32,000 nt of DNA from Gemmata obscuriglobus (GTDB lineage Bacteria > Planctomycetota > Planctomycetia > Gemmatales > Gemmataceae), in assembly GCF_008065095.1 (NCBI RefSeq), contig NZ_CP042911.1:210001-242000 (forward strand). Reading direction: 5' to 3'. The notes below the pieces were generated by a model that worked only from the letters and a program-made list of their open reading frames with translations, did no database searches and was not told where the DNA came from. Made by a program: the position numbers and the translations under genes. Below are positions 4,764 to 28,672 of this stretch, piece after piece (within the stretch, counting starts at the first letter, position 1; each line of letters opens with the position of its first letter).

Positions 4764-5870
<1,107 letters not shown>

Positions 5871-10229: not shown

Positions 10230-12764
<2,535 letters not shown>

Positions 12765-12768
<4 letters not shown>

Positions 12769-13046
12769 TGCCACGGCCCACTCCCCCCGCGGGACCATTT
12801 CTCCCATTGCGATAGTTGAAACGCCTTATCTTCCGCTCGCACGCGTTCCCAAGCGGCGAGTTCGTCCTCCGACATCCACGCCCCGAACGCGTCCATCAGG
12901 ACGAGGCGTCGTTGGATCGCTTCGGGGCTGTTGTCATCATCTGCTGGGAGCGGCGTTGCGATCGTTACCTGCGTCCCTTCCGGTAAGGTGACCGGCCCGT
13001 CAAGGACTACTTTGCCGTCCCGGATTATGCCACGAATCGTGCTCAT
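12765..13046 (-). CDS. AF2212/DUF104-type antitoxin (93 aa)
   Basis: ATG at 13046 with SD 'GGAGGG'. 'IRDGKVVLDGPVTLPEGTQVTIA'. It is overlap-coupled to the PIN gene. Confidence 0.7.
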
Positions 13047-13103
13047 CGGAATGCCCTCCGCCGGCTGGTATCCGTCATTGTAACACGGGCCGGCGTGGCT
13101 CGA

Positions 13104-13379
13104 TTAGCGGCGAAAAACGCCGGTGCCGAACTGACCCGAGATCGGGTTGTACGTGCCGTAACTGTATTTCGCCTTGTGCGTGAACGGGTTCGTGAAGTGA
13201 CTCGTCCGGCGCACCGAACCCACAATCGGTTGCAACTGCCCGACCGCCGGTGCCGGAGTCACGCTCAGCGGGTTGACAGTCGCGGTCGGAACGGTTGTGC
13301 CGCTTTTCTTCACCCATTCCGCGTTCACGTGCCCCGCGACCAATACCTGCACCAGCACCGCAATCAGGATGCGCTTCAT
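13104..13379 (-). CDS. Small secreted hypothetical protein (91 aa)
   Basis: ATG at 13379 with SD 'GGAGAG'. Signal peptide 'MKRILIAVLVQVLVAGHVNA'. No recognisable domain. Confidence 0.5.
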   Translation of the reverse strand: MKRILIAVLVQVLVAGHVNAEWVKKSGTTVPTATVNPLSVTPAPAVGQLQPIVGSVRRTSHFTNPFTHKAKYSYGTYNPISGQFGTGVFRR

Positions 13380-13557
13380 GTTCGCTCTCCGTGAAATCTT
13401 GCCCAGTCCAGCCATCTTTTCGGCTGCGGTCCGGGCCGGAGAGGAATTGAACACACGGCGGATGTCAGCGTGTGAGACGTGAAGGCCGGTTTACGCCGGT
13501 TGTGCGCGAGTGCCGGGCAGACGCCGGATTGTGCGTGTGCCCGGCGCTTGGAACGCG

Positions 13558-14010
13558 TCACGCGACCCAGTTGGCGTCGGTTGAGGTGAAGCTCACCAGT
13601 TCCTCGTCCTTGAACCACAGCGCGATTTCGATCGCCGCGTTTTCCAGGCTGTCGCTGCCGTGAACGAGGTTGTTCTGCACGCTCAGCGCGAAATCGCCGC
13701 GGATCGTGCCCGGGGGGGACTTCGCGCCGTCGGTCATGCCCATCAGCGTGCGGCACACCGCGACCGCCTCACGCCCTTCCCACACCAGCGCCACCGTCGG
13801 GCCGCTGGTGAGGAACGTGAGCAGGCTCTCGTAGAACGGCTTACCCTTGTGGACCGCGTAGTGCTTCTCGGCCAGTTCGCGGGACACCTGCACCAGCTTC
13901 AGGCCCGCGAGCCGCAACCCCTTGCGCTCGAAACGGGCGGTGATCTCGCCGACCAGACGGCGCTGAACGGCGTCGGGTTTCAGGAGGATGAGAGTACGCT
14001 GCGTCGTCAT
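13558..14010 (-). CDS. ndk: Nucleoside diphosphate kinase
   Basis: ATG at 14010. '[19 protein letters not shown]', '[10 protein letters not shown]', 'TIRGDFA', and active-site 'NLVHGSDS'. Confidence 0.95.
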
Positions 14011-14170
14011 GAACCACCGATAAACGGGTAACGGGTTCCGGTCATGGTGCGGAACCGGTGCGGGTTCGTCTACTGCCGGGCGCTCGGGTGCAGACCGGCG
14101 TGTACTCTTTCGGCGGGACCGGGTACGATTTCGGCACCGGGCGCCCGTTACTCCCGAACTGCTGCCCACA

Positions 14171-14608
14171 ATGGCAATTACGCACAGTCACAAGCTGGTC
14201 TTACCGGCCGACGCGAACCACCACGGCACGCTCTACGCCGGGGCGATGCTCCGGCTGGTGCTGGAAGCCGGGTACGCGACCGCGTGGAAGCACATCGGCC
14301 CGGAAGCGAACCTGGTGCTCCGCCGGGTGTTAAACATGGAATGCCTGCGCCCGGTGCCGGTGGGCGTAGTGGTTGAGATCCAGGGTGCGGTGCTCCACCG
14401 CACCTCCGCGTACCTCGTGTGCGGGCTGGTCGGGATGCCCTGGGACGACGGCACGCAGTGGGCGGAGGCGCTGTTCGGGTTCGCCCAGGTGAGCGCGGAC
14501 GGCAAACTGACCCACTTTCCGGACCACCTGCCCGCCGTGAGCCGACCGGCCGGCGAGGTGTGGGAGCGGCTCGAAAAGCGGATGAACAAGCTCCTGCGCC
14601 TGCGGTGA
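14171..14608 (+). CDS. Hotdog-fold acyl-CoA thioesterase
   Basis: '[30 protein letters not shown]' matches the YciA/BFIT-type thioesterase N-terminal motif. Size is 145 aa. Confidence 0.7.
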
Positions 14609-14610
14609 GT

Positions 14611-14760
14611 TCAGAGAAGCAGAAAAGGCGGTTTCACCGCAGAGGGCTCAAGAGCGCGCAGAGAGAACGAAGGCACCAAGGCGGAATTGCTCACTCCTTG
14701 GTGTTTGTTTCTCTCTGCGTACTCTCGTGCCCTCTGCGGTGAAACCGCCTTTGTTCTTGA
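14611..14760. repeat. ~150-bp composite palindrome filling a convergent intergenic gap (probable bidirectional terminator or structured element)
   Basis: Perfect 23-bp outer stem (14625-14647 pairs with 14729-14751). Inner stems are 11 bp (14657-14667 with 14709-14719) and 8 bp (14674-14681 with 14696-14703). Confidence 0.8.
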
Positions 14761-14766
14761 GACGTG

Positions 14767-15702
14767 TCACTTTCCGAGCTTGCGGCGGAAGAAGTCCATC
14801 GTCCGCTTCAGCCCCTCGTCGCGGCCCACCTTCGGCTCCCAGCCCAGCAGTTGCCGGGCGCGCGCGATGTCGGGCTGGCGCACCTTGGGGTCGTCCTGCG
14901 GGAGCGGCTTGAACACGATCTCGCTCTTGCTCCCCGCGAGCTTCTTGATCTCCTCCGCGAACTCCAGGATCGTGATCTCCGCTGGGTTCCCCAGGTTCAC
15001 CGGGTCGTGGTGGTCGGTGGGCAGCAGCCGCCAGATCCCCTCGACCAGGTCCGACACGTACTGGAAGCTCCGGGTCTGGTCGCCCTTACCGTAAACGGTG
15101 ATCGACTCGCCCATCAGCGCCTGGTACATGAAGTTCGGCAGCACGCGGCCGTCGTTCAGCCGCATGCGCTCGCCGTAGGTGTTGAAGATGCGGATGATGT
15201 GCGTGTTCACCCCGTGGACCCGGTGGTACGCCATCGTGATCGACTCGGCGAACCGCTTGGCCTCGTCGTACACGCCGCGCACGCCGACCGGGTTCACGTT
15301 GCCCCAGTAGCTCTCCTTTTGCGGGTGCTCGAGCGGGTCGCCGTACACCTCGCTGGTGCTCGCCAGCAGGTACCGTGCGCCGTGCGCCTTCGCCAGCCCC
15401 AGCGTGTTGTGCGTGCCCAGCGACCCGACCTTGAGCGTGGGGATCGGGTGCTCCAGGTAATCGACCGGGCTGGCCGGGCTGGCGAAGTGCAGCACGTTGT
15501 CCAGCTTCTCGCGCACCTTCAGCGGGTTCGAGATGTCGTGCCCGATGAACCGAAACTTCGGGTTCACACGGAGGTGGTCCAGGTTCGCCAGGTCGCCGGT
15601 GATCAGGTTGTCCACTGCGATGACTTCGTGCCCCTCGGCCAGGAACCGCTCGCACAAGTGTGAACCGATGAACCCGGCCCCGCCGGTGATGAGGGTGCGC
15701 AC
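14767..15702 (-). CDS. UDP-glucuronate decarboxylase (UDP-xylose synthase), SDR family
   Basis: '[12 protein letters not shown]', '[10 protein letters not shown]', 'YDEAKR', '[10 protein letters not shown]'. Start set at GTG 15702 (SD 'tGGAG'); GTG 15735 is also possible. Confidence 0.9.
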
Positions 15703-16121
15703 GCTGTGAACTCCACAGATGTCTTGGGGAAGCACACAGAAGGAGATATGAACCGGGCCGGCCGCACGACACCAAAGTTATGACGGATGCCGAAGAAATC
15801 GCACTCGTTTGTGAGGTACCGCCAAAAAGGTGAATGTATTGTCTTATTCTGGATCGTTTTCAATCGCGGCACGACTTGCCACTCGTTCTTCAAACTGTTA
15901 GCGTTCCCCTTCTCGCCGCGACTTCCCACCGAGCCACCCTTGCGGCTCACCGCCGTTCGAGTGTGACAGATCATCCGGTGTATGTTGTGGCCGATCCCAG
16001 GCGCCGATCAGGGTTGCTCGGACGGCGTGCGATCAAGTACAAGGAACATCAAGTCTACGTCTAAGTGATGTGTCGGAAGGCGCTCCACGTTAAGGAGCAG
16101 GTACGAGAAGGAGTCCGTCAC

Positions 16122-16991
16122 ATGCGCGACGCGTTGCGTCCGGGCCTGTCGCTGCTGGAACTGCTGGTCGTGGTTGCCATCGTTGGGGTTTTGATCGGGT
16201 TGTTGTTGCCCGCGGTTCAGAAGGTGCGGGAGGCGGCAGCCCGGTTGCAGAGCCAGAACAACCTCAAGCAGATCGGGCTCGCACTGCACACCCGCGCGGA
16301 AGCCCGATCTGGGCGATTGCCTGAGATCGATGGTGGGCTCAGCCATCGTCGATTCGGTCCAACCCCGCACATGGCCGCGGCGAAAGGTATGGACGGCGCC
16401 GTGCTGCACCCGAGCATAGGTTACCCAACCGGGTACTTTCGAATGCTCGTCAGCCCAGCAGACCCGACGCTCGCGGCCCGCCGCGCGCCGCTCGACGGTT
16501 CTGATCCAACGAGTGGCGCGCCGTTGGTGCTGGACCGGTCGGACGACCCGGCTACAAGTTACTGTTCCAACGCTTTCGTGTTCACCAACCGCCCGACCCT
16601 CAATACCGGCTTTCCAGACGGGCTCTCCCAGACGATATGGTTTGCGGAGAGGTACGCCCAATGTCGTGGTTCGGCATCGGACTACACCAACACCATATTT
16701 GGCCGGGCAACGTTTGCTGACGGGGGACCAGTTCTCGGCGGTGACAACCTCGGGCACGTGTACCCCGTCAGCGCCCCGCCCGGCGTGAGCCCCAGCCGGC
16801 CGGGAGCGACCTTTCAAGTGCGACCAACTTCAGAGAACTGCGACCCGTCCGTACCGCAGACGCCGCACATGGGCGGGATGCTAGTTGGCCTGGGCGACGG
16901 TTCGGTACGCACGGCCGGCGCGGGCATCCGGGCCGAGGTGTTCTGGGGGTTGGTGACGCCGGCCGGTGGCGAGGTGCTCGGGGACTGGTAG
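16122..16991 (+). CDS. DUF1559 protein with a prepilin-type N-terminal methylation motif and a C-terminal H-X9-DG motif
   Basis: ATG at 16122 with SD 'gaaggag'. '[49 protein letters not shown]'. C-terminal '[12 protein letters not shown]' is H-X9-DG. Confidence 0.9.
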
Positions 16992-17467: not shown

Positions 17468-17775
17468 CGGTTCGTGACTTCCCGACACGAGCAACCGGGG
17501 CCGATGAGACAGTCGTTCGGCCACAGAGAGCAAAGCGCTGGGGATGCAGAAGGAAGCTACACTTTGGTCGCCGTCGCCCCGAGTTGTATGAACGCGTTCC
17601 TGATCCCATCAGCCTCGGTGGGTGGGTTTGTACTCCGGGCAGCGGAGGGCGCCAGCGGGCTCGTCGCTGGCGGTCGGCTGGTAGTTCGCTGGTGCATCGC
17701 TACCACACGAGCGACCCGTTTCGTACCCTCGGTATCGGTCGAGAACTAACGGATGTAGCGGCAATCGGGGTTTAC

Positions 17776-18717
17776 TCAATCGGCAGCGAGCGAAAAATCG
17801 AACACCTGGTAGCGGTGGTCACTGCTACTGTTTAGCCCGCCAAGTCGGTACCGGACGGGAGTTATCCGCGGGCCGTGCAGACAGTGATCGAGGTCGTAGA
17901 TCGGCACCGGAACGGGCCAAGTTGCACCCCAACCGCCACCGGCAGTGTAATAGGCGTGAGCGTAACCGGCCGGTAGCTCCGTCAGGGCACGGGACCGGCG
18001 CGGGGCATTGAAGTCGCCGACGATCAGGTCCGGTCGGTGTCGCTCGATCAGCGCATTCACCTCGCGCAGCAACGGGTTACGAGCGACCCACACGCTAGAC
18101 GGCAGATCGAGTACGAACAGAGTGATCGGGCACCCGTCCGGCGCCCAGGTCACGGCCTGGACTTCGAATCCGTCCCGGTCAACCAGCCATCCGTCTGCGC
18201 GCAAGTTGCCCCGTCCGACCACGGCCAGGTTCGCAAAAGTGGCCGCTCGGTATTCGGCTCCGAGTTGATCACGCAACACCCCGACGTGGGCGGCGTTGAC
18301 CGCGTCCGTAAGCACGTACAGATCCGCACGTTCTGCCAGGAGGTGTTCACCGACACCCGATCGGGCCGGGCGCCCGGCCGTGTTCCAGTGAACGACTCGA
18401 AATCGGCCCGTGCCATCGGCCGGAATGTACTCGGCGCGGTTCTCGATCAGGCCGACGAACGCGACCACCGGAAGCGCGCCGCCGGCAGCCAGGAGCGCCG
18501 CCCGTCGTCTTCCAGTCGCGGCGTACATGAACGCGATGGCGACCAAAACGGCGGCCACGACGACCGACGGGATGTAGAAGCAGACGCCGGTGATCCAGGT
18601 GGTATCGCGAGCAAGTTGGCCGACGCCCCAGGCGGCGAGAAGGCACACTGCTCCGGGCGCCACTGCGGTGTACCCACGAGCGAACAGAGACCGAGCGGTT
18701 GATTGCGAGGGCGACAT
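17776..18717 (-). CDS. Membrane-anchored endonuclease/exonuclease/phosphatase (EEP) family protein; cluster gene D
   Basis: ATG at 18717, 13 nt after the stop of gene C. About three N-terminal TM helices. EEP core 'FRVVHWN', 'DLYVLTD', 'LIVGDFN' and terminal 'SDHRYQVFDF'. Confidence 0.8.
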   Translation of the reverse strand: MSPSQSTARSLFARGYTAVAPGAVCLLAAWGVGQLARDTTWITGVCFYIPSVVVAAVLVAIAFMYAATGRRRAALLAAGGALPVVAFVGLIENRAEYIPADGTGRFRVVHWNTAGRPARSGVGEHLLAERADLYVLTDAVNAAHVGVLRDQLGAEYRAATFANLAVVGRGNLRADGWLVDRDGFEVQAVTWAPDGCPITLFVLDLPSSVWVARNPLLREVNALIERHRPDLIVGDFNAPRRSRALTELPAGYAHAYYTAGGGWGATWPVPVPIYDLDHCLHGPRITPVRYRLGGLNSSSDHRYQVFDFSLAAD

Positions 18718-18730
18718 GGCGAATTCACTG

Positions 18731-21457
18731 CTATGGACCAGAAACGGCGAACAGGAACACGATGAACACAACCGTGAACAGCACCAACCCCAGGCACCCG
18801 CTCTTCTTCGCCTTCTTGTGCCGCTTTTTTCGGCCCTTCGAGTGCCGGTCGTCCTCGTCGTCATCAGACGATTGCTCTTCGCGGTCGGGCACAAAAGCCG
18901 ATCGGGAGGCATTCTTTTGAGGTCGCGAGATTTGCCGGCGCAGCCGCTCTACCGCAAGCGGGTCCAGCGCCGTCGACTGCGACGCGCTCTCGATCAGCGC
19001 CGCGAGGTTCATGTCCGGCACGCATGCGAGAATCAGGTGCGCTTGCAGCGCGCCGCGTGCGCGGGTGGGGCCGTCGTCGGAAAGGCGCACCGCCTCACTC
19101 GCGACCCGTCGAGCGGCGTTAAACGTCCCGTCCGTCGGGAAGCACACCCGGAACAGTTCGACGACCGGCGCCAGTTCGTCGGCCCCGTCGGGCAGGGCGA
19201 GGTCGGCGCCGCCGAGTTGCTTGTACACGACCCGCACAAGGTCGATGCGTTCCACCCCGAACGTGTCGCAGGCCTGCGGGACTTCGTCCGGGGTATCGAG
19301 CGGAATCGCAGTCGGGTCATTCACCCACCTCACCAGCGCGTTCGCCGCGAACAGTCGCGCAACGCCACCCGGGGGCAGCGCCTGCACCAGCCGCGCGCCG
19401 CTGGCGGTCAGCCGTTCGGCGGCGAGACGCAGGTGGGCCTGGACCTTTCGTTCCCAGCGGTGGATGACCACCGTTTCGTCCCCACTCGCAGCTCCGAGCA
19501 GGTCCGGCGACAGCAGCGCCGGGCTGAGCAGTTCCAGGTACCCGGCCCACACGTCGCGACCGGCGCCGTCACCGCCGAACCCGACCAGCAGGTGCGCGAG
19601 CCGGTTGTTCTCCAGAAGGAAATCGCCCCACGCGCCCTGGAGCATTTCGACGATGTGGCACAGCTTCAACCAGTCGCCCGGTTCGAGAGCGCCGGCCGCG
19701 AGCAGCCGGTCCATCAGTCCGGCGGCTGCGGGTGTGTACGGCGCGAACAGCGTCGTGAGCAGGGCGGGCTCGGTATCGAGGAACGGCCCCGCGGCGCGCA
19801 CGTACGCCGCGGCCGCGGCCGGAGGGGCGGCCAAGAGGTACTCGCGGGCGTGGGTCCGCATTGTGTCGCGATCGGGCGGCGGTACATGCGCGAGCCAGTC
19901 GAACCGATCGTCCGCGAGTACCACGAACGCAACGTACCCGGCCCAGTCCGGTTGCGTGTGGAGCAGCGGCTCCAGTTCCCCCGCCGTAACGGGCACCAGC
20001 AGCGCGCGGGGCGGGAACTGGTTCACGTCCGCGCAGGCGGTCCGCAACTCGGACCGCGCGGCGACGGGCAACCGGGACAGCTTCGCTTCGTTCTTCTCGC
20101 GGCCCACCAGCTTGTCGAGCAGCCGTCGCGCCTCGTCCGCGCCGACCGACTCGCGCAGCGCCGACCAGCACGCGCCCCAGCGGCGGAGGTCGTCCCGCAA
20201 AAGCGCGGCGATCGCGTCTTCCCAGAGCTCGCGGGCGTGCTCGGGCCGGGCGATCAGTTCGCGGAACGCGGCCCTCACGTCGGGACGCGCCAGCGCGGGT
20301 TCCTTCACCACGGCCCACACGCGCGTCACTCGCGCGGCCAGCTCCTCCCGCGCGAGCGGGTCGGCCTGGAGCGCGAGCAGGTCGCCGACGCTGGCGGTTC
20401 CGGCGTCGGTGCGGGCCAACCGGCGGGTGCGGGCGAGCGCGGCGCCGGCGCGGGGCAGCCCGCTCGGGTCCGGCCCGACCGCTTGCCGCACCGCGGGTAA
20501 CAGGCCCCACTCGCCGGCCGCCGCCAGTTCGACCAGCGCGGCGAGGCCAGTGCCGGCATCGCCCCCGTCCGGTGCGCGCAGCTCGGGCGACGAACGGGCG
20601 GGCGCGAAGGTGTCGAGGGCGATGCCGCGGGTGGTGCCGAGGTCCGGTTCGAGCCCGCGCTCGGGGCTACCGGTGTACGTGCCGACCACCTCCGCGAGCT
20701 TGTAATCCCGCAGGTTCCGCTGGTGCGGCTCGAACGTGCTGAACGTCAGGTCGTCGGTGACGGCTGGCGGGAGCAGCCGCACCGCACCGTAGAGGAGCAG
20801 GGCCACCAGACCGGGCTCGGCGTGAACGAACAGCCGGCGGCGTGCGGCGTCCTCCTCCTCGGCAAGTAGGAGCATCGCGCGGAGCATACGGGCGAACAGC
20901 GCGCGGCGCTCGGGCGCAGAGGCGCGGAGGCGCGAGGGGCACACGGTCCGGCTCAGTTCGGTCGGGCCGGAGGCACCGTCGTTCAGGAACGCGGCGAGGG
21001 CGTCGTCGTTCACCAGTTCGCCAGGGGGCAGCCCGGCGTTGCGCGGCAGTGCCTTCGATTCTGCGGGCGGGTAACTTGTCACCCACTCCTCGCTCCCCCA
21101 GGAGCGCAGCACCTCAGCGGGCTCGGCAGCGGGGAGCAGGAGCAGGTGCGAGAAGTACGAGCGGTCGCGGCCGACGGTGTCTTTTGCGAGGTACGCCGAG
21201 TGAACGGCCCACACGCGACCGCCCCTCGGGACTTTGGTGCGGGCCAGCCGACGTGGCGCGAACTCGGGCGCCGGCGGGTCGCGCCACAGTTCGAGGGGCA
21301 GTTCGTAGGGCGGGTACTGGAACGCGGCGTCGAGCGCGGCCGGGTCGGTGACGGACGCGGCGCGGACGGTGTACCCGGGGTCGTTCCGGACGCTGTCCGC
21401 GACGGCGCAGTGGGTGACGTAGAACTGGTCACCGCCCGCTTCCGGCACGCGCCCCAT
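18731..21457 (-). CDS. 908-aa tail-anchored protein with a GAP1-N2-like N-terminal Cys/His domain; cluster gene C
   Basis: ATG at 21457 with 'AGGGGA' upstream. 'DQFYVTHCAVADSVRNDPGYTVRAASV' (Cys17), 'GRDRSYFSHLLLL' (His104) and 'LRSWGSEEW' resemble, from memory, the GAP1-N2 pattern 'QLYYTSC..G..G..GFQ..A.S' / 'GNYFAH' / 'LW.s..W'. The body is Ala/Leu/Arg-rich and helical. The charged tail 'SSDDDEDDRHSKGRKKRHKKAKK' is followed by a C-terminal TM 'CLGLVLFTVVFIVFLFAV'. I am confident of the CDS; the family assignment needs an HMM check. Confidence 0.7.
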   Translation of the reverse strand: MGRVPEAGGDQFYVTHCAVADSVRNDPGYTVRAASVTDPAALDAAFQYPPYELPLELWRDPPAPEFAPRRLARTKVPRGGRVWAVHSAYLAKDTVGRDRSYFSHLLLLPAAEPAEVLRSWGSEEWVTSYPPAESKALPRNAGLPPGELVNDDALAAFLNDGASGPTELSRTVCPSRLRASAPERRALFARMLRAMLLLAEEEDAARRRLFVHAEPGLVALLLYGAVRLLPPAVTDDLTFSTFEPHQRNLRDYKLAEVVGTYTGSPERGLEPDLGTTRGIALDTFAPARSSPELRAPDGGDAGTGLAALVELAAAGEWGLLPAVRQAVGPDPSGLPRAGAALARTRRLARTDAGTASVGDLLALQADPLAREELAARVTRVWAVVKEPALARPDVRAAFRELIARPEHARELWEDAIAALLRDDLRRWGACWSALRESVGADEARRLLDKLVGREKNEAKLSRLPVAARSELRTACADVNQFPPRALLVPVTAGELEPLLHTQPDWAGYVAFVVLADDRFDWLAHVPPPDRDTMRTHAREYLLAAPPAAAAAYVRAAGPFLDTEPALLTTLFAPYTPAAAGLMDRLLAAGALEPGDWLKLCHIVEMLQGAWGDFLLENNRLAHLLVGFGGDGAGRDVWAGYLELLSPALLSPDLLGAASGDETVVIHRWERKVQAHLRLAAERLTASGARLVQALPPGGVARLFAANALVRWVNDPTAIPLDTPDEVPQACDTFGVERIDLVRVVYKQLGGADLALPDGADELAPVVELFRVCFPTDGTFNAARRVASEAVRLSDDGPTRARGALQAHLILACVPDMNLAALIESASQSTALDPLAVERLRRQISRPQKNASRSAFVPDREEQSSDDDEDDRHSKGRKKRHKKAKKSGCLGLVLFTVVFIVFLFAVSGP

Positions 21458-21619
21458 GTGCTGTCCCCTGTGTTCAAGTGCCAGGTTCCGAATCCGATGG
21501 GGAGCGTTCGGTGATTACAGCCGCTGATGTCGTTCTGGTCCGGTGCGCGGCCCGCTCGCGGCGCGAACAGTGCGTTGAGCTTCAGGACCACTGCTCTCAT
21601 TCATGGTCCGGTTGCGGAT

Positions 21620-21717
21620 GTCTGTTTATGGCCCATGTCTTTGTGGCACAGGCATTCCTGCCTGTGCAGCCATTTCGCACCGCACAGACAGGAATGTCTG
21701 TGCCACAAGAAACAGAC
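21620..21717 (-). other. Large imperfect hairpin in the B-C intergenic region
   Basis: The core arms 21640-21667 and 21682-21709 pair over about 28 bp with one mismatch and one G-U pair, around a 14-nt loop. A 7-bp outer stem (21620-21626 with 21711-21717) lies across an internal loop. No U-tract follows on the minus strand. Confidence 0.7.
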
Positions 21718-21795
21718 GCAACTAACCGGATCGTGGATCAGCAAGCCTGGGTGCTTTCGCACCGACTCGCGGGCCGCACACCGGACCGGAGCCGG

Positions 21796-24726
21796 TCACC
21801 AGCGGGTGCCGGTCGGGCTCGCGGTGCCGGAACCGACCGGGACCGGTCCGATGTTGAGCGCGGGTCCGTAGATCGTCTTCCAGCCCAGCTCCACCACCGG
21901 CCACACGGTGACGTAGGCGTGCGTGGCGCCGGCGGGCGGCACCAGCGTGACGCCGCCGCCCTCGCGCTGGTGGTTCTCGGCCAGGCAGTTGAGGCGCGAG
22001 TACGGGTCCGCTTCCGCCGGGTCGGTGAGGAACCGCCGGGCGTCCACCGCGACGACGCAGTGCGCGATCAGCCCGTGCCCGCCCCACGACCAGCACGCCT
22101 TCACCAGCCCGCCGCGCTTGCCCGTGATCGTGTACGCGGGGTACGCCGGGACCAGGCGCGCGTCGCCCGCGAGCCGGGCGCGCACCTGCGCTTCGATGGC
22201 GGCCCTCGTCCCGGCGTCGAACGCGTCGTGGTGCTCGCGCAAGAGGGCCATGTCTTCGGGGGCGAGCGGGCTGCCGGTCGTGATCCGCTGCCGGATGGCG
22301 ACCACCCGCTCCGCGCGCGCCAGCAGGTCCCCCACCTCGGCCGCCCGCGCCACCAGCGGCGGGTAGTCCGTGAGGTCCGGCCCCGGCGCGCCGAGCCGCG
22401 CGAGCAGCGTAAACATGTCGCGCGCCTTGAGCGCCTCGGACACCTTGGCCCACTTCTCGAGCCGGTCGCGGGCCAGCGTGAGCCGCTCGCGCAGCTCCTC
22501 GCGGTCCACGCACCCGGTGAGCAGCTTCCCGTGTTCGCCCCACAGCGCCAGCCACTTCTGGTCCTGCCGGTCCTTGCGCCGCTCTTCGCGATCGATGCTC
22601 GCGAACCGGTCGAGCAGCTTGCGCCGCACCACCGCCTCCTCGGCCCGCCGGAACAGCCCGGGGTTCACCTTGTCGAGGCGGGCCGCGAACCGGAGGTTCC
22701 GCGCCTTGAGGCGGTCGTAGGCGGTCGCGATGGCCCGGTCCGACGGCTGCGGCCGGTCCGCCTCGCGGCGCAGCTCGGCCAGCAGTTGCACCGACTCGGA
22801 GCCCTCGAGCACCCGGACGGTGTGCGGGTGCGGGTAGTTCGGCGGCAGCTTGCCCGCCGCGGCGAGCACCGCCTCCTCCGGGCCGCCCTGTTCGGCGCTC
22901 CGGATCGCCCGGTCCAGCGCCTCGACGAGGGCGAGCCGGGCGCGGGCCTCGGTCACGCGTGCGGCGAACGGCGCCGCCTCGCCGCACCCGCCGAGCCCCG
23001 CCCCGTCCCCCCAGGCGGCGACCAGCTTGGCGTCGTTCTCGTGGGACGCGACGGCGGGGACGCGGCGCAGCTTCTCCAGCGCCGGCCACCAGCGGGCCGC
23101 GTTCTCGCCGCGGGCGCGGTGTATGGGGGTGAGAGACGGGTGCGGCGGGCCGGCCGTGAGCACCCCCTGCCACGCGTCGGCCAGCTCGCGCTCGACTTGC
23201 GGGTTCTTGGCGCACGCCGCCAGGAACGCGTCGGCGGCGCGGATGCGGATGCGCCAGCCGTTCGCGGCGGCCTCGTAGGCGCGGGCCTCCGCGGCGCCCG
23301 ACAGTTTTGGGGCCGAGTCGCTCCAGAGCTTCACGAGCGTGCGCCCGTCGCCCGGGTTCACGGTCGCGGCCTTCAGCGCGTCGAGCAGCGCGACCTGTCC
23401 GGCCGCGGCCCGCGCGGCGGTCAGGACTTGGGGCTCCAGCCAGTCGTCGAGCAGCGCGGGCTGGTACGCGGCGGCGGCCGCTCGCGGGTTCCGCTCGTCG
23501 AGCGCCCGCTTGAGCGCGTCGCGGGCGGCGACCCGCTGGCGCGCGGCGTCGCAGGTGACGCGCACGTCGGGCGGAAGGGCACGCCCGGCGGCCGGCAGCC
23601 GTTCGCACTCGGCCGCGATGCGGGGCCAGTCCTTGACTCGCGCGTCGCACAGCTCCTTCAGCGCGGCGACGGGATCGGCGCCGCCCCTGAGGTCCGCGGG
23701 CAGGTCCTTCCCGGCGCGCTGGAGCCGGACCGTCTCCGTCTCGATCTGCGCCCAGTCGCGCGCGGACACCGTGAGCAGCGCCCGGAGCCGGGCGAACGGG
23801 TCAAGGGTGAATGGCGGGATCTGGGCGAACGGCTTGTTGAGCGACGCGCGGAGGTTCCGCGCCCACTCCGCGACCTCGGGGTCCTTCGACCGCATCAGGT
23901 CCGGCCAGAGCTGCGACTTCGCGGGCCGCTCCATGTCCGCGGGGGTGAACAGCAGATTCTCGTTGTCCGTCTTGAGGACGTACTTCACGTACAGTTGCGG
24001 GTCCGCGGCGATCGCGCGGAGTGCGACCAGGACGACCCAGGCCGAGAAGTGGTCGAGGTCAGCGCCGAGCCGCTCCGCGGCCCGCGCCGGGTGCTGGTAC
24101 GCGGGCTTGCCGAACTCCAACTGGTCGAGCCGCTGCTTCGGGTCGGCGGGGGCCAGCGCCGGGACGCACATGCCGTCGTAGTCGACCAGCACCGGGGCGT
24201 CGTTGACCACCAGCACGTTGTCGTGCTGGAGGTCACCGTGCGCAATCTGCGTCGCCTGGAGCTGCTGCACCAGCCCGACCCAGCTCTCGGCCATCCGCTT
24301 CAGGGCTGCGACGTCGGGCACCTTCCGTTCCGTCGTTTGGCGCACCCACTCGCCGAGCGCGACCCCCTTCACCCAGGCCATCGTGAGGGTCGGGTACCAC
24401 GCCTTCCCGACGCGGATGCCCTCGGTGTGGTACTGGAACTTGACCACGCACGGCGGCTTCTTCGGCCCGAGCGTCCGCTCGAGGTAGTCGGACACCGCCT
24501 TATACCGCCGGGCCCGGTCCTCGTTGGGGAAGTTGAACAGTTTGAGCGCGACGACCCCTTTAGGGCCGGTCATCTTGTACACGCTGGCGAACGCGCCGCT
24601 GCGGGCGCGGGGCACGCCCATCGGGCTGCGCTCCGCCTGGCTCTGCCGCAAATCCGGGTCGCGGAACGCGGTGTCCGGGTTCTGGAGCGAGTCCTTGTAG
24701 TCGGACTGTGTGGGCCAGCTCGCCAT
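21796..24726 (-). CDS. Protein-kinase-fold protein (976 aa) with a long degenerate helical-repeat region and a distinct C-terminal module; cluster gene B
   Basis: ATG at 24726 (the track's start at 24798 is GTG). 'SGAFASVYK' (glycine-loop equivalent), 'VALK' (Lys62), catalytic loop 'IAHGDLQHDNVLV' (Asp165, Asn170) and 'VDYDG' (DFG equivalent). About 8-9 degenerate ~50-60-aa units follow (e.g. 'ALKRALDERNPRAAAAAYQPALLDDW', 'LLDALKAATVNPGDGRTLVKLW', 'LVEALDRAIRSAEQGGPEEAVLAAA'). The last ~110 aa read 'ACWSWGGHGLIAHCVVAV...YVTVWPVVELGW'. Confidence 0.85.
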   Translation of the reverse strand: MASWPTQSDYKDSLQNPDTAFRDPDLRQSQAERSPMGVPRARSGAFASVYKMTGPKGVVALKLFNFPNEDRARRYKAVSDYLERTLGPKKPPCVVKFQYHTEGIRVGKAWYPTLTMAWVKGVALGEWVRQTTERKVPDVAALKRMAESWVGLVQQLQATQIAHGDLQHDNVLVVNDAPVLVDYDGMCVPALAPADPKQRLDQLEFGKPAYQHPARAAERLGADLDHFSAWVVLVALRAIAADPQLYVKYVLKTDNENLLFTPADMERPAKSQLWPDLMRSKDPEVAEWARNLRASLNKPFAQIPPFTLDPFARLRALLTVSARDWAQIETETVRLQRAGKDLPADLRGGADPVAALKELCDARVKDWPRIAAECERLPAAGRALPPDVRVTCDAARQRVAARDALKRALDERNPRAAAAAYQPALLDDWLEPQVLTAARAAAGQVALLDALKAATVNPGDGRTLVKLWSDSAPKLSGAAEARAYEAAANGWRIRIRAADAFLAACAKNPQVERELADAWQGVLTAGPPHPSLTPIHRARGENAARWWPALEKLRRVPAVASHENDAKLVAAWGDGAGLGGCGEAAPFAARVTEARARLALVEALDRAIRSAEQGGPEEAVLAAAGKLPPNYPHPHTVRVLEGSESVQLLAELRREADRPQPSDRAIATAYDRLKARNLRFAARLDKVNPGLFRRAEEAVVRRKLLDRFASIDREERRKDRQDQKWLALWGEHGKLLTGCVDREELRERLTLARDRLEKWAKVSEALKARDMFTLLARLGAPGPDLTDYPPLVARAAEVGDLLARAERVVAIRQRITTGSPLAPEDMALLREHHDAFDAGTRAAIEAQVRARLAGDARLVPAYPAYTITGKRGGLVKACWSWGGHGLIAHCVVAVDARRFLTDPAEADPYSRLNCLAENHQREGGGVTLVPPAGATHAYVTVWPVVELGWKTIYGPALNIGPVPVGSGTASPTGTRW

Positions 24727-24833
24727 TGTCCTGCTACGTTCCTTTGGCCTGGCGAGCGGGGGCTCACGCCCCAACGTCACGCGAATGCAACCAGCCACCG
24801 GGCGTTCAGTCGTTTCAAGTTCGTTATGCGTGC

Positions 24834-24899
24834 CACCCGCCCGCTGACGCAGGCGGTTCGACCGCAGTTCGTCGAACCGCCTGCGTCAGCGGGCGGGTG
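24834..24899 (-). other. Perfect 29-bp-stem hairpin in the A-B intergenic region (terminator or attenuator candidate)
   Basis: 24834-24862 'cacccgcccgctgacgcaggcggttcgac' is the exact reverse complement of 24871-24899. The loop is 8 nt. No U-tract follows on the minus strand. Confidence 0.8.
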
Positions 24900-24985
24900 T
24901 AACCTCGGCGCGTCTCGATCCCGCGACCGATCTCATCAGCACCTTACCTCCTTGAAACCACTGGCATTCGTTCGACCTGTAGGGC

Positions 24986-27196
24986 TCACTCTCTCCGCTC
25001 ACCGGCGAAAACCTCGTACCCGTGCATGTGGAGCAGCCACAAGAAAGGCTCCGCTACCCCAAACGGCGCGATCGTGCGTTTCGACAGGTCCTCAACCCCC
25101 AGTTCGTTCTCGAACAGGCTCACCGACGACACTGGGAAGAACAGCACCTGCCTCCCGAAGTAGCTCTCCACGACGGCCCGCACGTCCACGCCGCGGAATA
25201 TCAACTCTAACATGTCCTCGACCAGATCGCTGCGCTCCCGCACAAGGTCCAGGGTGGTGCGCTTCGGCTGCGCCGGCGTCAGGTCGCCCAACAACTTGCG
25301 GACGAACTGCACCGACTGGCCCGCGATCGGGTTGCGGGTCACCAGCAGGTCGAACTTCGGGATCACCACCGCCACCGGGACCGGGATCACGTCCCCGGGC
25401 GCCACCCGGCGCGCCTCCCGCATGTCGGCCATAAACTCGTTCAGTGCCGCCAGTTGCCGGTCGAGCGTCACCCCGCCCTTGCGCCCGTCGAGCTGGGTCG
25501 GGTCGAGGAACAGCATGAACCCGTCCATTTTAACCGCCTGCTTCTTCAGGCGGTCCACGTCGATCTTCTGGTTCACCAGCTCGCCCGAGTAGTCGAACAG
25601 GTTCACTAGCGCGGTGTTGGCGCCCGCCGGATCGATATCCCGGACGTGCATCATAACCGGGTCCGGCGGGGTGTTCACGTCGTGCAGGGTGTTGCCCGCG
25701 TCGCGCTTCAGGTTCAGGATGAGGTCGATGTAGAGGTCGAACCGCTCGTCCCCGAGCGAGGGGGCCGCAATGATGGTCGCGGCCGTCGGGGCCACCTGCT
25801 TACGGACCTTGTCGTAGGCGGTCGCGAGCAGGTGCGTTTTGCCGCTGTTCCGCACGCCCACCACCGGGAAGCAGAGCCGGCGGACGCGCTGGTAGCTGCG
25901 CAAGAACCTGAATCCGCAAGTCTTGCACTCGACGTATCCCGATTCGGTGGGCTCCGCCGTGGCCGGCCCGGGTTTGCGTTTCGGCTGCGGCGGCTTTCGG
26001 TTCGCGGCCCGGTAGCGCGGGCGTGTCGCGGCCTCGTCTTCTGCGGCGAACCCCTCGGGTGCGGAAATCGTGCCCGTTTTCTCGACCACGAGCTTTTCGC
26101 TGAAGCACCGGGGGCACTTCTTCGCGTCCGCTTTGATCCGGGCGGCCTCTGTGCGCACTGCGTGCCGATAGGGCAGAACCGCCAGCCCGAACAGCAGCGC
26201 GGCCGCGCCGCACCGAACCGCCGCGAACCCGATCGCCCGCCACCGGGCGCCGCCCCGGAGTTCATCGAGTTTGGCTCGGTCGATCGCGAGCTGGGCCTGA
26301 TCGGTTTCCGCTTCCTGCGTGAACCGGACGGCAAGCCGCGCGTCGCGCGCCGCGGATCGGAGCCGCTCCCAAACGAGGGATTCGCCCTCACGCACCACCT
26401 TTTCGGCGGATGTCCCGGGTGCGGCGACCAATTTCGCCCACGAGTCGGCCGCGGCCGCCCACTTTTTGTCCGCCTCGGCTTCCGCCGCCTCGGCCCGTGC
26501 GGTCGCTTCCTTCGTGCTGGCGGTCAGTTCGCCTTCTTCACGCACGGCCCAGACGGCGAAGCCCGGGTCGAAGGAGGGCGAGCACCCTGAGACAGCGGGG
26601 AGCACCAGCACCAGTGCCACGCCCGCGGCACGCCGCAAGCGGCGAAGCGACACCCGCTGCGCCCGCGCGCCCAACCCGCGCGCCACCGCGAACACGACCG
26701 CCGCGCACACCAGCAGCCCGACATCGGCGGGGGTGAGCTGAAATGAGCGGTGCGTACCGGCCTCGAGGTCGAACCCGTAGGCCGTCTGCTGCTGGTCCGC
26801 GTACCGGTGGAACGCGACCTTTTGCTTGTACACCTCTTCCCACTCGCGCCGCGCGGCGTCCGCCCGCGCCCGCGCCGACTCCGACATCCTCAGCGCGGCG
26901 TCGCGGAGTGCGTCGTAGTCTCTGCCGAGTATGGGGACCAGTTCGTTGACCAGCACCGACGGGTCTTGCGTCTGCCCGACCGATCGGTCGACCGGGCGCG
27001 GGGGCGAAATGAGGTCGGCCTCCCACCCGGCGGCCTCCCGCCGGGCGTGCTGCCGGTGCCAGTCGTACCGCAACCCGGCCAACCGCTCCGCTTCGGGGAG
27101 CGGTTCGGCACGGGCCGGCCCGCCGATCGCCAACACAGCCAGCACGGCACCGAGCATCAGGGCGCGGCGGCGGGGCCGGCAGTAAGATTCGGCCAT
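24986..27196 (-). CDS. Multi-pass membrane protein with a zinc ribbon and a C-terminal P-loop GTPase-like domain (736 aa); cluster gene A
   Basis: ATG at 27196 (the track's start at 27232 is ATT). Signal peptide 'LMLGAVLAVLAIGGPARA'. Three TM helices: 'VGLLVCAAVVFAVARGL', 'AGVALVLVLPAVSG' and 'AIGFAAVRCGAAALLFGLAVL'. Zn ribbon 'CPRC'...'CKTC' (residues 361-427). Walker A 'GVRNSGKT' (nt 25835-25858). G3/Walker B 'LVNLFDYSGE'. NKxD-like 'VVIPKFDLL'. Confidence 0.85.
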   Translation of the reverse strand: MAESYCRPRRRALMLGAVLAVLAIGGPARAEPLPEAERLAGLRYDWHRQHARREAAGWEADLISPPRPVDRSVGQTQDPSVLVNELVPILGRDYDALRDAALRMSESARARADAARREWEEVYKQKVAFHRYADQQQTAYGFDLEAGTHRSFQLTPADVGLLVCAAVVFAVARGLGARAQRVSLRRLRRAAGVALVLVLPAVSGCSPSFDPGFAVWAVREEGELTASTKEATARAEAAEAEADKKWAAAADSWAKLVAAPGTSAEKVVREGESLVWERLRSAARDARLAVRFTQEAETDQAQLAIDRAKLDELRGGARWRAIGFAAVRCGAAALLFGLAVLPYRHAVRTEAARIKADAKKCPRCFSEKLVVEKTGTISAPEGFAAEDEAATRPRYRAANRKPPQPKRKPGPATAEPTESGYVECKTCGFRFLRSYQRVRRLCFPVVGVRNSGKTHLLATAYDKVRKQVAPTAATIIAAPSLGDERFDLYIDLILNLKRDAGNTLHDVNTPPDPVMMHVRDIDPAGANTALVNLFDYSGELVNQKIDVDRLKKQAVKMDGFMLFLDPTQLDGRKGGVTLDRQLAALNEFMADMREARRVAPGDVIPVPVAVVIPKFDLLVTRNPIAGQSVQFVRKLLGDLTPAQPKRTTLDLVRERSDLVEDMLELIFRGVDVRAVVESYFGRQVLFFPVSSVSLFENELGVEDLSKRTIAPFGVAEPFLWLLHMHGYEVFAGERRE

Positions 27197-27337
27197 GGTG
27201 GTCCGGATGGCGGTTGAGGCAACGGCGCCCAATTTAACCTAAGGACCGGTCACAGCGGCCGCAAGCCATTTCGCCCCTGCCATCCCGGTCCGTCGCCGGC
27301 GCTATCCGGGCGCGGCGTTAAGCCGTATCTTCTCCGC

Positions 27338-28672
27338 ATGAACGACACTCCCCCCGCGGCCCCCGCCCCCGGCGCCCCGGCCCGCCCTGTCCCCAACCGG
27401 GGCGCGCTCGGCATCGTCTGGCTGGTCGTGTTCATTGACTTGCTCGGGTTCGGCATCGTCCTGCCCGTTATGCCGCGCCAAGTGGAGCCGTACCTGGCTC
27501 ACCTCGAACTGGCCGCGGCCGCCCGCGGTGCGGTGATCGGGGTGCTGTTCGCTGTCTTCTCACTGATGCAGTTCGTGTTCAGCCCGGTGTGGGGGCGCGT
27601 CTCGGACCGGATCGGCCGGCGCCCGGTGCTGCTCCTCAGCCTCCTCGGATCGGTAGTTTTTTACGCCCTGTACGGGTTCGCGGTGACGCTCGACTCGGCC
27701 CGCGCGGAACTGGCGCTCGGGCTCATGCTGCTGTCGCGGGTCGGGGCCGGGATCGCCGGCGCGAGCGTCGGCACCGCCGCGGCTGTGATCGCGGACTGCA
27801 CGCCGCCCGAGAAGCGCGCGAAGGGGATGGCGCTGATCGGGATCGCGTTTGGAGCGGGGTTCACGTTCGGACCGCTGGTCGGCTTTTTCGGGCTGGAGCT
27901 GTTCGACGAGCAGCCGTGGGGCGTCGGGGTGCTCGCGTCCGGGCTGTCACTCGTCGCGCTTCTGGTCGCGGTACTCGCGTTCAAGGAGACGCGGAACCCG
28001 GAGCATAAAGCCGGCAAAGACTTTTTCAGCGTGGCGCGGTCCGTTGAGGTGCTGAAGATGCCGACCGTGGGCGCGCTGGTGCTGATCTACTTCATGGCCA
28101 TATTTGCGTTCGCGAATTTCGAAGCCACGCTCGCGCTGCTGACCCGCGACGCCCTCGGGATGACCAACATCCGCGAGAACCTTTTGGTGTTTGCGGCGGT
28201 GGGCGCGGTGCTCACGTTCGCGGGCGGCGCGTACCGCCCTATGGTGAAAAAGCGGTCCGAGGAGGCGCTGCTCCGGTTCGGACTGGTGCTGATGGTCGCG
28301 GGGTTGGGCGCGGTCGGGCTGGTCGCGTTCGCGGCATACCAGTGGAAGGCCGACGGCACCGTCTCGGCCGCCCAGCTAACGGTCGGGTTCTATCTGTCGA
28401 TCTCGCTCGCCGTGATCGGGTTCGCGTTCGTGAACCCGTCGGTTTCGGCGCTGGTGTCGAAGCGATCCGATCCGACGCGGCAGGGCGAGGTGCTGGGGGT
28501 GAACCAAGCGTTCGCGTCCCTGGGGCGCATCTTGGGGCCGTTCTTCGGGTCGATTCTGTTCCAGACGGAGCCGTCGCGCACGCTGCCCTATGCGGTCGCG
28601 GTGGTCACGCTGGTGCTCGTCGGAGTGCTGTTGCTGCCGAAGGCGAAACAGCACCCGGCGGGCGCGACGTGA
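27338..28672 (+). CDS. MFS transporter (12-TM drug/H+ antiporter-like)
   Basis: 'LGIVWLVVFIDLLGFGIVLPVMP' and MFS motif A 'GRVSDRIGRRPVLL'. There are about 12 hydrophobic segments. Confidence 0.9.
   Translation: MNDTPPAAPAPGAPARPVPNRGALGIVWLVVFIDLLGFGIVLPVMPRQVEPYLAHLELAAAARGAVIGVLFAVFSLMQFVFSPVWGRVSDRIGRRPVLLLSLLGSVVFYALYGFAVTLDSARAELALGLMLLSRVGAGIAGASVGTAAAVIADCTPPEKRAKGMALIGIAFGAGFTFGPLVGFFGLELFDEQPWGVGVLASGLSLVALLVAVLAFKETRNPEHKAGKDFFSVARSVEVLKMPTVGALVLIYFMAIFAFANFEATLALLTRDALGMTNIRENLLVFAAVGAVLTFAGGAYRPMVKKRSEEALLRFGLVLMVAGLGAVGLVAFAAYQWKADGTVSAAQLTVGFYLSISLAVIGFAFVNPSVSALVSKRSDPTRQGEVLGVNQAFASLGRILGPFFGSILFQTEPSRTLPYAVAVVTLVLVGVLLLPKAKQHPAGAT

Follow-up and report, generated by a model that had tools for sequence, protein, structure and literature searches.

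A membrane-integrated zinc-ribbon DO-GTPase encoded with a kinase-fold protein and a GAP1 protein in Gemmata obscuriglobus

The stretch of Gemmata obscuriglobus DNA analysed here (the window, 32,000 nucleotides) corresponds to positions 210001–242000 of the 9.0-Mb contig NZ_CP042911.1 (assembly GCF_008065095.1; G+C 62–76%). On its minus strand lies a gene, here called gene A, for a 736-residue protein that combines an export signal, several hydrophobic segments, a zinc ribbon, and a C-terminal GTPase domain assigned to the DO-GTPase2 family; it is followed on the same strand by genes for a kinase-fold protein (gene B), a GAP1 protein (gene C), and a membrane-bound endonuclease/exonuclease/phosphatase (EEP)-fold protein (gene D). 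We consider it probable, at roughly 0.7, that gene A encodes the receptor-like membrane switch subunit of a GAP1-N2-type system, a figure that refers to its identity and general mode of action; its sensing, dimerisation, direction of signalling, and biological role are aspects that we infer. The features of gene A, in window positions and in the order of the protein chain, are as follows.

24986..27196, minus strand: gene A, membrane-integrated zinc-ribbon DO-GTPase2, 736 residues, stop codon at 24986–24988 (open reading frame, translation, homologues, Pfam PF19993)
27107..27196, minus strand: residues 1–30, predicted Sec-type signal peptide with an RPRRR n-region, a hydrophobic core, and an ARA/E site (hydropathy peak at 12–30, AxA conservation)
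26732..27106, minus strand: residues 31–155, first predicted extracytoplasmic segment, a helical hairpin (35–62, 79–140) plus a small beta-hairpin (AlphaFold2)
26660..26731, minus strand: residues 156–179, predicted transmembrane (TM) helix 2, running from outside to inside (hydropathy peak of 2.16; helix in both AlphaFold2 models)
26630..26659, minus strand: residues 180–189, Arg-rich loop, predicted to be cytoplasmic and also resembling the n-region of an internal signal (net charge +4.6; conservation of R181 and R185)
26582..26629, minus strand: residues 190–205, third hydrophobic segment, ending in a lipobox-like VSGC, with the Cys205 codon at 26582–26584 (invariant C205, motif counts)
26237..26581, minus strand: residues 206–320, second predicted extracytoplasmic segment, a Gly/Ser/Pro tether and then an Ala/Glu-rich hairpin (216–256, 264–320) (composition, models)
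26117..26236, minus strand: residues 321–360, predicted TM helix 4 with its extension into the cytoplasm, both within an unbroken helix (264–360) that ends at the zinc ribbon (hydropathy at 322–340, both models)
25901..26116, minus strand: residues 361–432, split zinc ribbon CPRC...CKTC (four invariant Cys, model strands)
25946–26080, minus strand: residues 373–417, disordered and variable Pro/Lys-rich insert of the zinc ribbon (predicted local distance difference test score, pLDDT, <50; 27% mean identity)
25007..25888, minus strand: residues 437–730, Ras-like G domain with inserts (Pfam, fold matches, motif conservation)
25835–25858, minus strand: G1 motif GVRNSGKT, residues 447–454
25580–25594, minus strand: G3 motif DYSGE, residues 535–539
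25349–25360, minus strand: G4 motif PKFD, residues 613–616

The minus-strand open reading frame extends over 24986–27232 and begins at a TTG, but the ATG at 27196, which gives the 736-residue product, was preferred over the TTG at 27232 because an identical protein of 736 residues is already on record and the homologues begin at the same Met-Ala. A word-indexed search recovered 108 full-length relatives with 30–100% identity, the taxa named among them being Gemmata, Gemmataceae, Fimbriiglobus, Isosphaera, and Planctomycetes, and an exhaustive HMMER search of 1.8 billion cluster representatives recovered 384 homologues at E ≤ 0.001. Most of the best 150 of these 384 matches are 650–780 residues long, and the shorter ones include partial or frameshifted sequences. 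Conservation was assessed in an alignment of 45 full-length homologues, in which C205, C361, C364, C424, C427, G447, G452, K453, D535, G538, E539, K614, and D616 are invariant; because the identities in this set fall as low as 29%, the motifs of gene A are not attributable to chance. An earlier, sequence-only reading of this DNA had listed several of them, and all are present at the places it gave: ARA|EP (28–32), LPAVSGC (199–205), CPRC (361–364), CKTC (424–427), GVRNSGKT (447–454), DYSGE (535–539), and PKFD (613–616).

The C-terminal part of the protein is assigned by profile comparison to the DO-GTPase2 family. The Pfam model (PF19993) scored 34.4 bits against the whole protein and 35.9 bits against residues 355–736, relative to a gathering cut-off of 27, and a precomputed match to it exists for many of the homologues; in a search of residues 355–736 with hmmscan (E ≤ 5), the only families returned were DO-GTPase2, DO-GTPase1 as a weak second, and Lar. 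The elements of a Ras-like domain are recognisable: the G1 GK[ST], the switch-I Thr (T503, at least 90% conserved), FDYSGE, and [PST]KxD are conserved across four planctomycete orders, and S690-S691 probably constitute G5. A beta2-beta3 hairpin occupies residues 514–537 of the AlphaFold2 model. K614 and D616 of G4 are invariant, the first position of this motif being Pro in the Gemmata clade and Ser or Thr (S/TKxD) in the sister clades. Glu539, which occupies the place of the catalytic Gln61 of Ras, is invariant in the 45 sequences, and Gln, Ala, Arg, or Asp is found there in a few distant members.

Structure comparisons gave the same answer. The top Foldseek matches to the G domain were Rho and Ras chains; VIA-align superposed all 167 chain residues of Rap1b (Z 14.1, root-mean-square deviation 2.7 Å), and a structure search independent of Foldseek yielded Rab28 (Z 14.2) and YcjX (6nz4_A; Z 14.0, 4.0 Å), the latter with the longest alignment at 242 residues. 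By sequence, a profile of the 45 homologues found no solved GTPase among the PDB sequences. The conserved G1, switch-I Thr, G3, and G4 Lys and Asp together with the fold matches therefore identify a TRAFAC GTPase, as the sequence-only reading had proposed in calling the domain TRAFAC-like; the DO-GTPase2 score above its cut-off, the Z-scores of 13–14 against Rap1, Ras, and Rab folds, and the invariant G4 residues all agree with that proposal, and no assignment to an unrelated ATPase family emerged. Judging from K614 and D616, the domain is most probably guanine-specific.

The four cysteines ahead of the G domain, earlier read as a zinc ribbon, form one split ribbon in the AlphaFold2 model: a strand (369–371) follows the first knuckle, and the second knuckle lies within a beta-hairpin (421–424 and 430–432). 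The linker between the knuckles had been put at 59 residues, which is exactly the distance from C364 to C424, and it varies among homologues in both length and sequence. CPxC occurs in every planctomycete order examined. The second knuckle is CxxC in most Gemmatales/Isosphaerales rows of the alignment, with the two Cys further apart in a few, and C-x(10-13)-C throughout the Pirellulales/Planctomycetales clade. The ribbon had also been described as directly and immediately abutting the P-loop; it is indeed near, but "immediately" is too strong, since 19 residues (the beta-hairpin and strand beta1) lie between CKTC and the P-loop. The ribbon is a trait of the family and does not point to nucleic-acid binding here, as had been suggested; a weak resemblance to the eL42/L44e zinc ribbon (E 0.02, 45-homologue profile against PDB sequences) is not significant.

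The topology of the remainder was assessed from hydropathy, charge bias, conservation, and the AlphaFold2 model. Hydrophobic peaks cover residues 12–30, 159–177, 187–209, and 322–340. At the first of these, a signal-peptidase I site is retained, with Ala at –3 in 35 of the 45 homologues (otherwise Val, Gly, Ser, or Thr), Ala at –1 in 40, and mostly Gln, Glu, or Asp at +1, and the signal peptide is presumably cleaved. The mean net charges of the flanking regions match the positive-inside rule: those placed inside have +1.7 before the first hydrophobic core, +4.6 in the loop between TM2 and TM3, and +4.0 after TM4, and those placed outside have –1.3 after the signal peptide, –1.2 before TM2, –0.5 after TM3, and +1.5 before TM4. 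Within the loop between TM2 and TM3, R181 is invariant in 99 sequences and conservation of R185 reaches at least 90%. Hydropathy, the retained AxA site, charge bias, and the models thus argue that both large loops face outwards and that the cytoplasm contains the zinc ribbon and the P-loop domain. This is the arrangement of outside segments and a cytoplasmic GTPase that had been claimed, and neither the hydropathy nor the charge pattern puts the NTPase outside the cell; the topology in vivo is expected to follow this predicted one.

Both large loops appear as long helical hairpins in the predicted structure. The full-length model has a pLDDT of 78.9, and a model of the N-terminal 361 residues built with 99 sequences has a pLDDT of 88.4 and a predicted template modelling score (pTM) of 0.78; the two share helices at 35–62, 79–140, 156–179, and 216–256 and the unbroken helix at 264–360, which includes TM4 and in both cases stops one residue ahead of CPRC. 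From the helix lengths, the outer stalk would stand an estimated ∼9 nm high. Ala (27%) and Glu (12%) are prominent in the second loop. Sequence change has been faster in the outer module (42–43% mean identity to the homologues) than in the G domain (68%); the layout of four hydrophobic segments and loops of ∼130–150 residues before CPxC is retained even where N-terminal identity is only 12–18%.

The third hydrophobic segment looks like a lipoprotein signal placed inside the chain, with putative lipidation at Cys205. The sequence-only reading had called LPAVSGC lipobox-like, and its Cys proved to be real and deeply conserved, with a nearly invariant G204 beside it. Among 207 full-length homologues, 141 contain [LVAF][PSA]GC[GSA]; in these, the –1 residue is Gly in 120 and the +2 residue is Gly, Ser, or Ala in 110. 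Counted from the last charged residue, the Cys follows at a spacing of 15 residues in 87 of 134 cases and of 16 in 21 more (15–16 in 108 of 134), and the n-region has a median of six Lys/Arg in 13 residues. In the models, pLDDT is low at this segment and along the Gly/Ser/Pro-rich stretch that follows Cys205. The sequence of gene A conforms to a lipobox pattern of the PROSITE type, and a strict fit was found for 65 of the 141 motif-bearing homologues; about half thus miss the strict pattern, the commonest departure seen being Pro at –2 (59/141). Genes for Lgt (PF01790) and LspA (PF01252) are present in the genome, and among its 208 crude N-terminal lipoprotein candidates, Gly dominates at –1 and Pro occurs at –2 in 12 (6%), so the motif of gene A is compatible with the local lipoboxes.

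On a tree built from the zinc-ribbon and GTPase columns only, with the columns of the motif itself left out, [LVA][PS]GC was present in 30 of 31 Gemmatales/Isosphaerales rows versus none of 17 Pirellulales/Planctomycetales rows, a distribution that needs two changes as opposed to ∼15 in shuffles. The signal-like element occupies residues 178–205, behind both the Sec signal peptide and TM2, and is thus not at the N-terminus of the precursor as the definition of a lipoprotein would have it. That it is a working internal signal in the Gemmatales/Isosphaerales clade, with Lgt acylating Cys205 at the outer face of the cytoplasmic membrane and LspA perhaps cutting before it, is a possibility that we consider rather unlikely. 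Such a cut may leave a stalk half (31–204) and a lipid-anchored single-pass half with the second hairpin, the zinc ribbon, and the GTPase, and the two halves may then stay joined only through the periplasmic helical bundle. No trustworthy case of a gene naturally split at the lipobox was found among the homologues: three short proteins ending just past the motif (P0173, P0228, and P0182) have out-of-family tails and look like frameshift artefacts. One metagenomic protein (P0102), a single case, has a Met start just before the n-region. An intramolecular disulfide was rejected as a role for Cys205, as no other extracytoplasmic Cys is conserved among the 45 homologues; an intermolecular disulfide within a homodimer is a possible alternative to lipidation.

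Gene A is followed on the same strand by the three genes below.

21796..24798, minus strand: gene B, kinase-fold protein with a long C-terminal region, 1000 residues, probable start at Met25 (nucleotide 24726) (PADLOC STK_OB)
18731..21457, minus strand: gene C, GAP1 protein (GAP1-N2 + GAP1-M), 908 residues, with a predicted C-terminal tail-anchor TM segment (Pfam, hydropathy peak at 887–905)
17776..18717, minus strand: gene D, membrane-bound EEP-fold protein with three predicted N-terminal TM segments (Pfam PF03372, TM peaks)

Residues 27–340 of protein B match the PADLOC model STK_OB (E 2.7e-54), a name for which a literature search returned only irrelevant papers, and in 42 planctomycete loci conservation of its motifs HGDLQHxN (187–194) and DYD (206–208) is 90% or more, a level that the Lys expected to bind ATP (in VALK) did not reach in a quick alignment. 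The C-terminal 700 residues of protein B match no Pfam family. In gene C, the two GAP1 models scored 36.5 bits (PF20013) and 26.8 bits (PF20014) against a cut-off of 24 for both. Ahead of its tail anchor, the GAP1 C-terminus (18731–18790, minus strand) has a stretch rich in Lys and, on the cytoplasmic side, a Ser-Gly-Cys; beyond the TM helix it extends by only three residues. Gene D likely starts at the ATG at 18717, 14 nucleotides past the GAP1 stop, rather than at 18912. A scan of 17500–27500 for promoters and terminators gave nothing above shuffled expectation that bears on the operon.

Elsewhere in the genome, a second GAP1 gene (contig 5132392–5134446, L065:6393–8447, minus strand) encodes an orphan GAP1-N2 + GAP1-M + vWA fusion of 684 residues with a DDE-transposase open reading frame on each side. 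This gene was considered as a possible site of a second GTPase, which was rejected, since no GTPase adjoins the fusion between its transposases; the orphan might pair in trans with the only DO-GTPase of the genome. Two other genes in the window were recorded: one for a sigma-54 activator (4764–5870, plus strand; AAA+, HTH_8) in which Pfam matches begin at residue 14, leaving it without a receiver or other sensory domain, and one for an MlaD-OmpA fusion protein (8058–9275, minus strand).

A scan for related loci, with one genome per species, recovered 59, all planctomycetal. In nearly all of those long enough to show gene order, gene B follows gene A and the GAP1 gene follows gene B, and the A-B-C order spans Gemmataceae, Isosphaeraceae, Pirellulales, and Planctomycetaceae. 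Gene D is shared only with the nearest relative, Gemmata algarum, and possibly represents a lineage-specific, variable output component. In G. algarum JC673 (L006:12609–16605), the EEP gene (85% identity) comes directly after genes A (87%) and B (91%). Two loci from Gemmata metagenome-assembled genomes (L015 and L017, ∼12150–16190) have ∼4 kb between genes A and B, apparently occupied by additional inserted genes. Gene A itself was found in 16 of 20 sampled genomes of the same genus, in 4 of ∼115 genomes from other genera of the family, in none of 15 from the sister family, and in none of 300 in an even, phylum-wide sample; these patchy counts, together with its scattered presence in other orders, describe an accessory-gene pattern.

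These features suggest the following mode of action. The Sec signal peptide would export the N-terminus, and the loops at 31–155 and 206–320, each a long helical hairpin, would together form a periplasmic stalk, the last helix of which would run through TM4 into the cytoplasm and end at the zinc ribbon packed on strand beta1 of the G domain. A change in the envelope, whether triggered by a ligand, a perturbation of the cell wall or membrane, or an invader, would be passed down this continuous helix to the G domain and alter its nucleotide state or its homodimerisation; K614 and D616 would make the domain specific for guanine. Protein B, with its kinase fold, and the tail-anchored GAP1 would then read or regulate the GTP state and relay it to outputs.

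Several observations weigh against the proposal that gene A encodes the receptor-like switch of a GAP1-N2-type system. With respect to sensing, which the sequence-only reading had asserted outright and which is still a matter of inference, the outer module matches no Pfam family at E ≤ 5; its model (residues 1–361), compared with ∼48,000 PDB representatives, reached a best Z of 7.3 against generic long helices such as those of MscK, SNAREs, and Beclin, weak matches that do not show the fold to be new; and the ESM Atlas gave no usable feature match for residues 31–345 and structural TM-scores of ≤0.30. None of the fold, Pfam, and Atlas comparisons thus revealed a recognisable ligand-binding fold. 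With respect to family membership, the DO-GTPase2 match spans only positions 4–164 of the 226 in the profile, and this is the single DO-GTPase of the genome: the 9.0-Mb sequence (99.5% complete) yielded one match to PF19993 and none to PF19975, a protein search likewise found no paralogous copy, and the "double" GTPase pairing is therefore absent, although that feature is optional for the family (38% of systems). With respect to partners, no FN3 family was detected in protein B or its C-terminal 700 residues (E ≤ 5), and a protein with rapidly evolving FNIII repeats is said to typify GAP1-N2 systems; the related loci have no conserved toxic effector in the operon core; and in G. algarum no GAP1 gene was detected between gene B and the EEP gene, so genes A and B may function with no GAP1 gene beside them, the protein in that species being perhaps dispensable or encoded elsewhere. 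Finally, the literature searched contained no experimental test of any member of the DO-GTPase/GAP1 families, whose switch, sensor, and conflict roles are predictions.

The first of three other explanations takes the operon to be an envelope-stress or membrane-maintenance module that monitors or remodels the membrane or cell wall, like the psp-linked YcjX with its membrane partner YcjF, rather than an anti-invader system. This would suit the structural alignment of YcjX noted above, and a PSP survey (PMC11237479) places a psp-linked GTPase in the DO-GTPase family and predicts a role for it in membrane stress, with reference to the structure of YcjX (6NZ4; Tsai et al., 2019), a link that fits YcjX having given the longest alignment. 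The products of genes A, C, and D are all predicted to be membrane-anchored, the core contains no conserved nuclease, toxin, or pore effector, and the flanking MFS transporter, LigA, and sugar epimerase are unlike a defence island or mobile element. However, the occurrence in 4 of ∼115 genomes of the family and none of the 300 in the phylum sample is unlike that of a housekeeping function, the outer module diverges fast, the YcjX Pfam family is not among the sequence matches, and no psp genes adjoin the operon; on balance we think this rather unlikely.

Another explanation, which we judge unlikely, gives the outer module a structural role instead of a sensory one: as a tether or spacer it would hold the GTPase at a defined site in the membrane or link it to the peptidoglycan or outer membrane, and regulation would lie wholly with GAP1 and the kinase-fold protein. 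A module consisting only of long helices, without a recognisable pocket domain, and conserved in the length and spacing of its segments but not in sequence, would be suited to such a role, and the lipobox-like Cys might provide a further attachment to the membrane. On the other hand, the unbroken helix joining stalk, TM4, and ribbon resembles those of transmembrane signalling receptors, and a set of Trp, Arg, and Glu residues conserved in the two loops (such as W46, W119, W216, R219, and E220) suggests a specific interface rather than a plain spacer. That the P-loop domain is an ATPase or a nucleotide-independent scaffold, as the Pro at the first G4 position in the Gemmata clade (PKFD, lacking the canonical Asn/Thr) and the partial Pfam match might suggest, is highly improbable given that the G4 Lys and Asp are invariant, that the S/TKxD of sister clades is a known variant of NKxD, that conservation extends to G1, the switch-I Thr, G3, and a candidate G5, and that every top fold match is a GTPase.

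Predicted to act in regulation or conflict, DO-GTPase/GAP1 systems are widespread. With its outside stalk, continuous transmission helix, zinc ribbon, and Ras-like switch on a single polypeptide, the planctomycete form would provide a clean model in which to ask whether bacteria signal across the membrane through receptor-coupled GTPases, alongside histidine kinases and chemoreceptors; the compact and conserved partner set of a kinase-fold protein and a tail-anchored GAP1 is suited to reconstitution. An internal lipobox, if real, would widen the definition of a lipoprotein and bear on the substrate range of Lgt and LspA, and if LspA split the chain, the receptor-GTPase could signal through the very joining or parting of its two halves. 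The phrase "internal lipobox" had zero occurrences in the literature searched, and, to our knowledge, no polytopic bacterial protein has been described with a conserved internal lipobox, so that Cys205, if lipidated, would mark the first.

Among known systems, the third hydrophobic segment may be compared with lipoproteins that also span the membrane, for example Bacillus CtaC and QoxA. Common to both are an Arg-rich n-region, a short hydrophobic core, [LVA][PS]GC, and a small +2 residue, followed by a Gly/Ser/Pro tether and a later TM helix; the signal of gene A, however, is internal, lying ∼175 residues into the chain behind another signal peptide and a TM helix, and its family often has Pro at –2. 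For the G domain, close parallels are Rap1, Ras, Rab28, and RagA-like GTPases, over which the whole Ras fold superposes (160–177 residues, Z 13–14, root-mean-square deviation 2.7–3.0 Å) and with which the logic of G1–G4 is shared; relative to the small Ras-superfamily GTPases, identity is 13–19%, the domain of gene A has ∼120 additional insert residues, and Glu replaces the catalytic Gln. YcjX (6NZ4; cited in PMC11237479) likewise has a Ras-like core with large inserts and is linked to membrane proteins and membrane stress, but it is soluble, without TM segments or a zinc ribbon, and occurs in a psp/ycjF gene context. The resemblance is structural only, as residues 355–736 gave no sequence match to the YcjX Pfam family at E ≤ 5.

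The closest overall match is to the GAP1-N2 "GTPase-centric" systems described computationally by Kaur et al. (2020; PMC7159879), in which a DO-GTPase is the proposed switch and GAP1 couples sensing to it. According to that study, the DO-GTPase definition includes a conserved Walker B Glu, ∼60% of DO-GTPases have one or two N-terminal zinc ribbons, ∼13% have N-terminal TM segments, and their extracellular parts are proposed to contact the cell wall or ligands; the "unusual" design attributed to gene A by the sequence-only reading was thus overrated, since zinc-ribbon and N-terminal TM forms were already on record. The system of gene A shares with these a TRAFAC GTPase with the Walker B Glu, an N-terminal zinc ribbon and TM segments, a linked TM-anchored GAP1-N2/GAP1-M protein, the membrane-proximal design, planctomycete occurrence, and an accessory-like distribution; no planctomycete genera are named in the supplementary text of the study. 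It differs in its gene set and in the architecture of the GTPase. Kaur et al. (2020) report two paralogous GTPase copies in 38% of systems and usually two ribbons in GAP1-N2 systems, whereas here there is a single GTPase gene with one ribbon; the four-N-terminal-TM form, also with a C-terminal TM, was described for two-GTPase systems, whereas the hydrophobic segments of gene A enclose two helical loops of ∼115–125 residues without a Pfam model; and the kinase theme was described as confined to actinobacteria, whereas the constant third partner here is a kinase-fold protein, with no FNIII-repeat protein detected. The internal lipobox-like motif of the Gemmatales/Isosphaerales clade is a further difference. 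New relative to the published description are therefore the outer module of ∼350 residues, the core of one GTPase with a kinase-fold partner, and the internal lipoprotein-like segment.

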